A stretch of 1,248 nt of DNA from Escherichia coli (GCF_003334335.1 NZ_QOWQ01000115.1); one strand, 5' to 3'; positions 1-1,248 are shown, numbered from the stretch's first letter. Notes: generated by a model not told the origin, from the sequence alone. Translations and numbers: made by a program.

Positions 1-40
1 CTGCGATCAGCAGGATCAGCGCGCCGACTATCTGTAACAT
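1..40 (-). CDS. yeeR: Start of a downstream co-directional gene with a hydrophobic N-terminus (putative inner-membrane protein); 3'-partial, only 13 codons in window
   Basis: ATG at 38-40 (minus) preceded by GGAG with a 5-nt spacer. Translation MLQIVGALILLIA is strongly hydrophobic (transmembrane-like or signal-like). It lies 120 bp downstream of the flu stop on the same strand; in E. coli K-12 the gene after flu in CP4-44 is yeeR, a predicted membrane protein. The symbol is assigned by synteny and memory, not by a verified sequence match. Confidence 0.4.
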   Translation of the reverse strand, partial: MLQIVGALILLIA

Positions 41-45
41 AGTCA

Positions 46-49
46 CTCC
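46..49 (-). promoter_or_regulatory. Shine-Dalgarno sequence (GGAG) for the downstream gene
   Basis: Minus-strand sequence reads ...cacGGAGtgactATG; GGAG sits 5 nt upstream of the ATG at 40. Confidence 0.4.
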
Positions 50-115
50 GTGATGAATATCATGTTATTGTTAATGCCAGCGAATGTGGCGTTGAATATC
101 CGTTGCGCCGGTCCG

Positions 116-140
116 GGTCCCGATCATGATGACCGGGACC
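116..140. other. GC-rich inverted repeat / stem-loop in the flu 3' intergenic region (perfect 7-bp stem ggtcccg/cgggacc, 11-nt loop containing the palindrome ATCATGAT)
   Basis: Positions 116-122 ggtcccg are the exact reverse complement of 134-140 cgggacc; the loop 123-133 is atcatgatgac. It begins 21 nt past the flu stop codon. No U/T tract follows on either strand, so it is not a canonical intrinsic terminator; it may be a 3' stabilising hairpin or a partial terminator. Confidence 0.35.
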
Positions 141-160
141 ACAGAGAGGCGATGGTTCTG

Positions 161-1248
161 TCAGAAGGTCACATTCAGCGTGGCCTGACCGTTATAGCCT
201 TCAGCGCTGCTGCCGCTGACGCTGTGGACATAACCTGCCTGAACGCCCAGGGTGATATTTTCCCGGACACGGGCTTCCAGTCCGGCCTGCAGGTCCAGTG
301 ACGTACCATTCTGTGACGGTGAGAACGTCATGTTACTGCCGGCTGCGGCTGTACCCATGCTCATGTCCCCCCGGGAGCTGAAGGTGCGGATAACAGAAGG
401 CTGTACCCACCAGTTCACCGGCAGTTCACGCACACTGTGTTTGGCACTGCCGCGCAGGGTGTCACGGGATGAGGTGCCTTTACCAAAGTTCATATCGTGG
501 TGGCTGCCCAGACGGAAGCCGGCACGCACATGTTGTGCACTGCCATGCCCGAACTTCACATAACTGGCGTTATCCTGGCCGTCATCCAGGGAGAGTCCCT
601 GCCAGGTGTACTGCAGTTGCGGCTCCAGCATCAGATTGTCAGTGATACTGAAGGGCAGACCGGTTTCCAGCGAACCCAGCCAGCCCCAGCCCCGGACGCG
701 GAAGTCGTTATTGTCCGATGAGGCTTTCATGCTGTGGCGGGTTCCCTGGGCCACAATGTCAGCCCACAGGCCGGAGGCGTTGTGTATCAGATTCAGGTAT
801 CCGCCCAGGCTGCCGGCATCATCCCGGACCGTGCCGGCACGGGAGCCGTCATCATCCTTAACATCAACGGAAGAATGGCCAGCAGCACCATATACCCCCG
901 CGGTCACAGACATACCGGCAACCTCTGTTCTGAGCAGGTCACCCTCCAGACGGACGAAGCCATAGCTGCCGCTGCTTTCCGGCGTGGCTCCACGGGCAAT
1001 ACCGCCGTTGTTATCGTGACCGAGATGACCGCCCTGAATGCTGAGACGGACGCTGTTATTTTCACCGCTTACACCGGTCTGATGGCTGCGGGAGCCTGCC
1101 AGAATCCGGTCATAGTCCATTGCCTGTGTCAGCATGGAGGCGTATAGGGGGACTTCAGCACGATAACGTTCTTCACTGCGCAGATACCAGCTCTCATCAC
1201 TGTCCCGGTTGAGGGAGTAGTTAAAGGCACCGGCCTGCAGCTTATTCC
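161..1248 (-). CDS. flu: Antigen 43-type (AIDA-I family, type Va) self-associating autotransporter, C-terminal beta-domain/translocator; 5'-partial, gene continues beyond the right window edge
   Basis: Minus-strand frame is open from 1246 to the TGA stop at 161-163 (checked codon by codon from 1136 to 1246: no stops). The Met at 1135 has no purine-rich RBS upstream (cccctatacgcctcc-ATG), so it is internal. The protein ends ...SGSSAEGYNGQATLNVTF with a terminal Phe, the classic outer-membrane beta-barrel C-terminal signature. Amphipathic beta-strand-like segments are present (YGFVRLEG, GWGWLGSLETGLPFSI, HVRAGFRLGS, WWVQPSVIRTFS, ITLGVQAGYVHSV). The sequence matches my recollection of E. coli Ag43 (flu); allele or paralog cannot be assigned without alignment. 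Confidence 0.8.
   Translation of the reverse strand, partial: NKLQAGAFNYSLNRDSDESWYLRSEERYRAEVPLYASMLTQAMDYDRILAGSRSHQTGVSGENNSVRLSIQGGHLGHDNNGGIARGATPESSGSYGFVRLEGDLLRTEVAGMSVTAGVYGAAGHSSVDVKDDDGSRAGTVRDDAGSLGGYLNLIHNASGLWADIVAQGTRHSMKASSDNNDFRVRGWGWLGSLETGLPFSITDNLMLEPQLQYTWQGLSLDDGQDNASYVKFGHGSAQHVRAGFRLGSHHDMNFGKGTSSRDTLRGSAKHSVRELPVNWWVQPSVIRTFSSRGDMSMGTAAAGSNMTFSPSQNGTSLDLQAGLEARVRENITLGVQAGYVHSVSGSSAEGYNGQATLNVTF

Follow-up and report, generated by a model that had tools for sequence, protein, structure and literature searches.

Antigen 43 (Ag43) is among the best-studied autotransporters of Escherichia coli; published work already covers its translocator and loops as well as its classes and distribution (PMC10058404, PMC6668479, bioRxiv 10.1101/2025.04.08.647479). 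The Ag43 of strain K-12 is the prototype of class C1 (PMC6668479). The Ag43 translocator, comprising linker helix and barrel, is 330 aa long, follows an autochaperone domain of 114 to 117 aa and falls into the phylogenetic cluster of AIDA-I (G13) (PMC10058404). The barrel of Ag43 has not yet been solved, and mutagenesis showed that loops L4 (D900-H913) and L5 (S969-N992) of Ag43a speed the folding of the passenger and autochaperone and are needed for clumping (bioRxiv 10.1101/2025.04.08.647479).

The mechanism described in these three sources would apply to the present protein as follows. The precursor would cross the inner membrane through Sec, and its C-terminal beta-signal (...NVTF) would be recognised by BAM, with the help of TAM, for insertion of the barrel into the outer membrane. 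The passenger would thread out C-terminus first, the linker helix staying in the pore, and the autochaperone hairpin together with L4 and L5 would provide the nucleus from which the passenger beta-helix folds. Self-cleavage would then take place at D551/P552, with alpha43 remaining non-covalently on beta43. Head-to-tail pairing of alpha43 with alpha43 between neighbouring cells would lead to autoaggregation and biofilm formation.

The window analysed here, that is, the whole stretch of 1,248 nt of E. coli DNA, almost certainly carries the 3' end of agn43 (flu) on the minus strand. The product would be the C-terminal part of antigen 43, a self-associating autotransporter of type Va, from the tail of the autochaperone through the linker helix to the 12-stranded barrel. 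The allele would be of the GE3/WP_000820497.1 type with a 30-nt patch from another allele, in a context of the CP4-44 type. The protein domain is thus an already known one in its customary genomic setting.

Reading frame and family assignment

The ORF listing and translation of the minus strand from 1246 to 161 gave 361 codons without interruption, followed by a stop. The translation begins with NKLQAGAFNYSLNRDSDESWYLRSEERYRAEVPLYASMLTQAMDYDRIL... and ends with ...AEGYNGQATLNVTF*, its last residues being GYNGQATLNVTF. The 361 codons correspond to Ag43 residues 679-1039 in K-12 numbering. Bases 1247-1248 are the final two bases of the codon before, and the frame is still open at the window edge (1248). 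The features of the frame are the following.

164..1248, minus strand: 3' part of agn43/flu with 361 full codons, preceded by 2 bases of codon 678 (open frame, NF033177, K-12 identity, agn43 DNA identity, dN/dS)
161..163, minus strand: TGA stop codon of agn43 (sequence and translation)

The original prediction had placed about 362 residues with an NVTF end at 161-1248, and the 361 complete codons plus stop, with the same terminus, agree with it. Its coordinates hold as well, but it stated no strand, and translation puts the gene on the minus strand. The description of the window as a translocator domain applies to 161-1248; bases 1-160, which lay outside its coordinates, are not Ag43.

In comparisons of the minus frame with K-12 and with strain M3, dN/dS was 0.21 and 0.19, respectively. 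Because the ratio is around 0.2, the agn43 frame is a coding sequence under constraint, although dN/dS records the history of the allele and not the state of the window's own copy. Plus-strand ORFs of 74-137 aa were rejected as antisense artefacts, the minus frame being the one with coding constraint.

The sole family match in NCBIfam was the Ag43/Cah equivalog NF033177 (auto_Ag43), with 857.5 bits and E = 1.3e-257. The match spans positions 588-948 of the 948-position profile at 2.4 bits per position. The curated cut-off of NF033177 is 1200 bits and was set for whole proteins; a fragment that covers just 38% of the profile, as here, cannot reach it. As full-length proxies, the GE3 protein and K-12 Flu scored 1902 and 1875 bits, respectively. 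The Pfam family PF03797 (Autotransporter beta-domain) matched aa 86-337 with E = 3.2e-21, covering model positions 16-254 of 255.

Of 5426 complete E. coli genomes searched by megablast with the whole window, 4145 gave a match; the median copy number was 2 and the maximum 7. Among the matches listed, an agn43 or Ag43/Cah annotation lay under every one. The identity of the window DNA to agn43 of E. coli genomes ranged from about 90% to 99.4%, the latter being the best. The comparison with Ag43 (P39180) that the original prediction had proposed gave 336 of 361 aa identical to K-12 Flu, with no gaps. Its main claim, that the window holds a translocator of the Ag43 type and type Va from a known adhesin and no new system, is upheld by sequence, profile, fold and genomic context alike.

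Predicted architecture of the translocator

A PDB sequence search with the 361-aa fragment returned no match at E <= 0.001. Because of this lack of a sequence relative in the PDB, the barrel was modelled and compared by fold. The AlphaFold2 input consisted of 28 diverse homologues, trimmed and aligned with the window protein. The model had a mean pLDDT of 88.9 and a pTM of 0.86, and contained a beta-hairpin and a helix, followed by 12 long strands within aa 65-360. The following elements were assigned.

1157..1246, minus strand: final ~30 residues of the AC1 (autochaperone) domain, a beta-hairpin capping the passenger beta-helix, predicted strands aa 8-14 and 20-28 (model, signature, lengths from PMC10058404)
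1094..1156, minus strand: linker alpha-helix, aa 31-51, RAEVPLYASMLTQAMDYDRIL, predicted within the barrel pore (model pLDDT ~95; superposition on 4MEE and 3SLJ)
164..1054, minus strand: predicted 12-stranded outer-membrane beta-barrel, aa 65-361 (PF03797 at aa 86-337, model, Foldseek)
545..586, minus strand: extracellular loop L4, aa 221-234, DDGQDNASYVKFGH, equivalent to Ag43a D900-H913 (mapping; short strand 229-232 in the model)
419..502, minus strand: long periplasmic turn T4, aa 249-276 (pLDDT <50 at 252-270; polymorphism)
308..379, minus strand: extracellular loop L5, aa 290-313, SSRGDMSMGTAAAGSNMTFSPSQN, equivalent to Ag43a S969-N992, a beta-hairpin (mapping, model)
164..184, minus strand: C-terminal beta-signal ATLNVTF, with terminal Phe and alternating hydrophobics (translation, ends of homologues)

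The linker helix comprises 21 residues in the model and superposes on AIDA-I 4MEE and on pre-cleavage EspP 3SLJ, both of which contain the helix. The lengths given in PMC10058404 indicate that the window holds the 330-aa translocator in full, together with some 30 autochaperone residues. The classical beta43 chain has 488 residues, of which these 361 amount to 74%. The aligned homologues end in a similar way to the window protein (...LKVTF, ...LKIRF and ...VRVNW, or V-x-F or W). Taken together, the model depicts a well-formed predicted translocator with all expected elements.

The L4 and L5 of Ag43a correspond residue for residue to window aa 221-234 and 290-313. In the model, L5 (SSRGDMS...SPSQN) carries short extra strands at 295-298 and 306-308. 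By analogy with the function reported in the preprint, L4 and L5 of the window may act as folding-nucleation hairpins of the SAAT type (Ag43, AIDA-I, TibA).

The window protein differs from K-12 at 25 aa, 16 of them in loops or turns (seven in T4, five in L5, two in L4 and two in T2). Among 66 E. coli protein clusters, polymorphic positions were found at 9 of 30 residues of the autochaperone end, 8 of 28 in T4 and 7 of 24 in L5, and the transmembrane strands were largely invariant. Apart from T4, no long segment of the model has a pLDDT <50. Such a long variable turn is unexpected on the periplasmic side, because selection on surface exposure would not account for its variation.

In a Foldseek search against the PDB, the best 18 matches were all monomeric type Va translocators (EspP, AIDA-I 4MEE, EstA, Hbp, BrkA, AaaA and NalP), and no type Vc structure was among them. 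The top matches had sequence identities of 12-17% and target-normalised TM-scores of 0.7-0.8. From its modelled fold, the barrel would belong to the type Va class. EspP scored marginally above AIDA-I by fold alone, at an identity of 14% in the structural alignment. A fold search does not separate Ag43 from SPATE barrels, and the assignment to the Ag43 subfamily is therefore one made from the sequence.

The fold is common to all type Va barrels and the top Foldseek match, EspP, is a SPATE, which would be compatible with a translocator of another autotransporter (AIDA-I, TibA, a SPATE or a trimeric type Vc protein) that merely resembles Ag43. We give this reading next to no credence. The fragment matched no NCBIfam family other than auto_Ag43 at E <= 0.001, SPATE and trimeric families included, and it is 93% identical to K-12 Flu over 361 residues, compared with 14-17% to EspP and AIDA-I in structural alignments. 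A trimeric type Vc anchor has 4 strands per monomer, whereas in the model about 300 residues of one chain make up the complete set of 12 strands, so type Vc is out. The intra-barrel cleavage motif of SPATE proteins is EVNNLN, and this motif is absent from the 361-aa translation. Neither a better match to another autotransporter family nor a lack of similarity to Ag43 beta-domains, the two outcomes that the original prediction had named as contrary to it, was seen; Ag43/Cah was the only match in NCBIfam. It would be just as hard to believe that the minus frame represents a decayed pseudogene, or an ORF left open by chance in GC-rich DNA, and that the real gene is one of the several plus-strand ORFs (74-137 aa) overlapping the region. 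The 361 stop-free codons, the dN/dS of about 0.2, an E value of the order of 1e-257 to a curated family and the confident fold all speak for the minus frame, and the CDS lies on the minus strand in every annotated genome examined. The reading retained is that of an Ag43 translocator encoded on the minus strand.

Allele type, mosaic patch and passenger

No 100% match to the whole window was found among the 5426 complete E. coli genomes, the best match having 7 mismatches. For the 5'-most 149 nt, the best match has 2 mismatches, and for bases 1-200, exact matches exist. The four nearest genomes sampled (GE3, O145:H28 RM12761, ETEC B7A and MLI106K4) encode one and the same 1039-aa protein, WP_000820497.1, and all four carry an intact 3120-nt gene (99.4% identity). 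The differences from this allele are confined to one feature.

1142..1171, minus strand: 30-nt mosaic patch holding all 7 differences from the GE3-type allele (N704E, A705R and 3 synonymous) (sequence comparison)

The patch agrees with the M3-type allele at 6 of its 7 sites. M3 differs from the window at 57 positions in all, 56 of them elsewhere. Among 91 protein clusters, 6 show the EER variant, which is also present in strain M3. Residues 704 and 705, with the substitutions N704E and A705R, sit where the autochaperone hairpin meets the linker helix. Since the patch matches another allele, the window is a fine-scale mosaic, as expected with several coexisting agn43 copies. From the sequence comparison, the patch looks like a micro gene-conversion tract between agn43 paralogues at the junction of autochaperone and linker helix, and the mosaic fits recombination among the multiple agn43 copies of E. 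coli. The window thus illustrates agn43 alleles as fine-scale mosaics.

The sequence points to an allele of the GE3/WP_000820497.1 type that contains a patch from another allele; this type is the 1039-aa long form and has a passenger resembling that of K-12. In the comparison of WP_000820497.1 with K-12, the passenger was 95% and the N-terminal part of the autochaperone 99% identical. The corresponding value for the window part is about 93%, a figure obtained from the window itself, which is 2 residues off WP_000820497.1. Going by these identities, the barrel is not the most conserved part in this pair. The original prediction had held that the beta-domain is conserved and that the allele could not be read from it. 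This was too cautious with regard to the nearest allele and the long-form signature, both of which were found, with DNA identities spread over about 90-99.4%; it was right in that the barrel does not prove the class, a short-form barrel being 94% identical.

The first 25 residues of the window carry the long-form (K-12-like) autochaperone signature NYSLNRDSDES, with the junction ...NK followed by LQAGAFNYSLNRDSDES. Where the signature has S at its first variable position, it was preceded by a long-form junction in 15 of 15 retrieved clusters, reading ...VQGN. in 14 and ...VQENM in one. The alternative NYTLNRDSDED was preceded by the short-form ALSRP in all 60 retrieved clusters. The homology break between short and long forms falls exactly at window residue 2/3, with GN(K/R) versus SRP before LQAGAF. 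Taken with the nearest allele, the long-form signature would predict a passenger of class C1, or at least of subfamily I, in the C1-C6 scheme of PMC10058404. Overall barrel similarity does not track passenger class in the sequences compared, and the barrel sequence by itself says little about that class.

The window begins its complete codons at residue 679, with everything upstream out of view, and a different origin has to be weighed here. The window could derive from a passenger-deleted or fused derivative, either a YeeP-like GTPase joined to the beta-domain or an ESPR with a stub of passenger, and would then be a remnant unable to aggregate. Such proteins occur in public data: P0007, P0008 and P0016 (581 aa) are a GTPase joined to the beta-domain, and P0003, P0014 and P0022 (496-508 aa) have lost the bulk of the passenger but still possess the ESPR signal. 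The GTPase fusions, P0014 and P0022 have the short-form junction, ...ALSRP followed by LQAGAFNYTLNRDSDED, whereas the window has the long-form one; P0003 is a long-form deletion, so the long-form signature does not exclude a deletion. The intact gene in all four of the nearest genomes sampled and the purifying selection on the frame, which reflects the history of the allele and not the window's own copy, also argue against a remnant. We consider this origin improbable and prefer an allele of the long, intact type found in the nearest genomes.

In the three GTPase fusions, the join is at ...ALALSRP followed by LQAGAF, and the GTPase is the upstream YeeP-like one. The fusions and the forms of about 500 aa suggest recurrent deletions that removed the adhesive part and kept the barrel.

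Given a short-form translocator that is 94% identical and the passenger-deleted derivatives, the passenger class and integrity are not provable from the window. The original prediction had likewise stated that the integrity of the passenger could not be read from it, and the passenger-deleted forms in public data confirm the point. Intactness, expression and aggregation are not demonstrable here because the passenger, which in the Ag43/Cah family is an L-shaped, self-associating beta-helix (SL-EJ-BL), the ESPR signal peptide, the D551/P552 cleavage site and the phase-variation region all lie outside the window; the OxyR/Dam (GATC) phase-variable promoter region lies about 2.1 kb past the window edge. 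The practical value of the analysis is a correct annotation, namely an island of the CP4-44 type with a long-form, K-12-like agn43 allele.

Downstream region and comparison with known systems

Beyond the stop codon, the window contains a spacer with a hairpin and the start of a second gene.

41..160, minus strand: agn43-yeeR intergenic spacer, 120 nt (comparison with K-12, 2 nt different)
115..139, minus strand: 11-bp GC-rich hairpin GGUCCCGGUCA-UCA-UGAUCGGGACC, 21 nt past the stop, inside a structure at about 100-155 (folding)
1..40, minus strand: first 13 codons, MLQIVGALILLIA, of a yeeR-like gene, with ATG at 40-38 and a GGAG ribosome-binding site at 49-46 (K-12 yeeR start; annotated starts)

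Compared with shuffled sequences, folding of the hairpin gave z = -4.2 for the sense RNA and z = -1.9 for the antisense. Its stem differs from K-12 at a single position, and the resulting G-U pair exists in the sense RNA but not in the antisense. A consensus scan of the window detected no canonical intrinsic terminator, there being no U-run after the hairpin in this lineage, and an Rfam scan of the whole window gave no match at E <= 1. On the plus strand of the window, one promoter-like site was found where 0.5 were expected, which is at the level of chance.

The hairpin is kept across diverged loci, and in the short-form locus of Ec-050-T5-ESBL its flanks are unrelated. There (L009 223-197), a compensatory change has replaced a U-A pair of the stem by C-G, and a U-run, UUUUUACUUU, comes after the hairpin; the scan called this a canonical terminator. 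These observations suggest that the hairpin is a terminator-derived element, which may be leaky in yeeR-linked islands. A more specific proposal, which we put forward tentatively and regard as rather unlikely, is that it is a degenerate terminator whose U-run was lost in long-form yeeR-linked islands and which now serves as a leaky attenuator or 3'-end stabiliser, coupling the phase-variable agn43 to the yeeR-like genes, the same hairpin terminating cleanly in short-form loci.

Positions 40-1 of the window are identical to the start of K-12 yeeR, and an annotated CDS begins at this point in GE3, M3, RM12761 and B7A. The downstream ORF encodes 838 aa (hypothetical protein) in the islands of GE3, M3 and RM12761, compared with 510 aa (YeeR) in K-12; from these lengths, the K-12 copy of yeeR appears shortened. 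The gene order of the island was seen in GE3, M3 and K-12, and the setting of the window matches the CP4-44-type layout.

In comparison with K-12 Flu (b2000, YP_026164.1, P39180), window aa 1-361 align without gaps to residues 679-1039 and share the ATLNVTF end. At the DNA level, 1017 of 1088 nt are identical to K-12 flu, leaving 71 differences. The K-12 spacer is likewise 120 nt long, its hairpin is almost the same, and the region of the yeeR start codon shows no difference; the ORF that follows encodes 510 aa in K-12, against 838 aa in the islands that come nearest to the window. The WP_000820497.1 locus is closer, with 1241 of 1248 nt identical; no difference falls in the barrel, the spacer or the beginning of the downstream gene. 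It differs from the window by 7 substitutions, all in 1142-1171, which include those behind N704E and A705R.

The short-form Ag43/Cah (948 aa, for example WP_000820596.1) has a translocator 94% identical to that of the window (336/359) and the same hairpin after the stop. It differs in the autochaperone module and in the middle region, the latter aligning poorly with that of the long form, and it is shorter than K-12 by a net 91 residues. Its junction reads ALSRP...NYTLNRDSDED, in contrast to GN(K/R)...NYSLNRDSDES in the long form. In the short-form locus, the U-run after the hairpin makes a canonical terminator, whereas the window has no U-run.

Among the solved type Va structures, AIDA-I (4MEE), EspP (3SLJ/2QOM), Hbp (3AEH), BrkA (3QQ2), NalP (1UYN) and EstA (3KVN) have the same 12-strand barrel and N-terminal pore helix as predicted by the model of the window. 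Their sequence identity to the window is 13-17%, and the window protein is distinguished from them by its long, low-confidence T4 and its paired L4/L5 hairpins.
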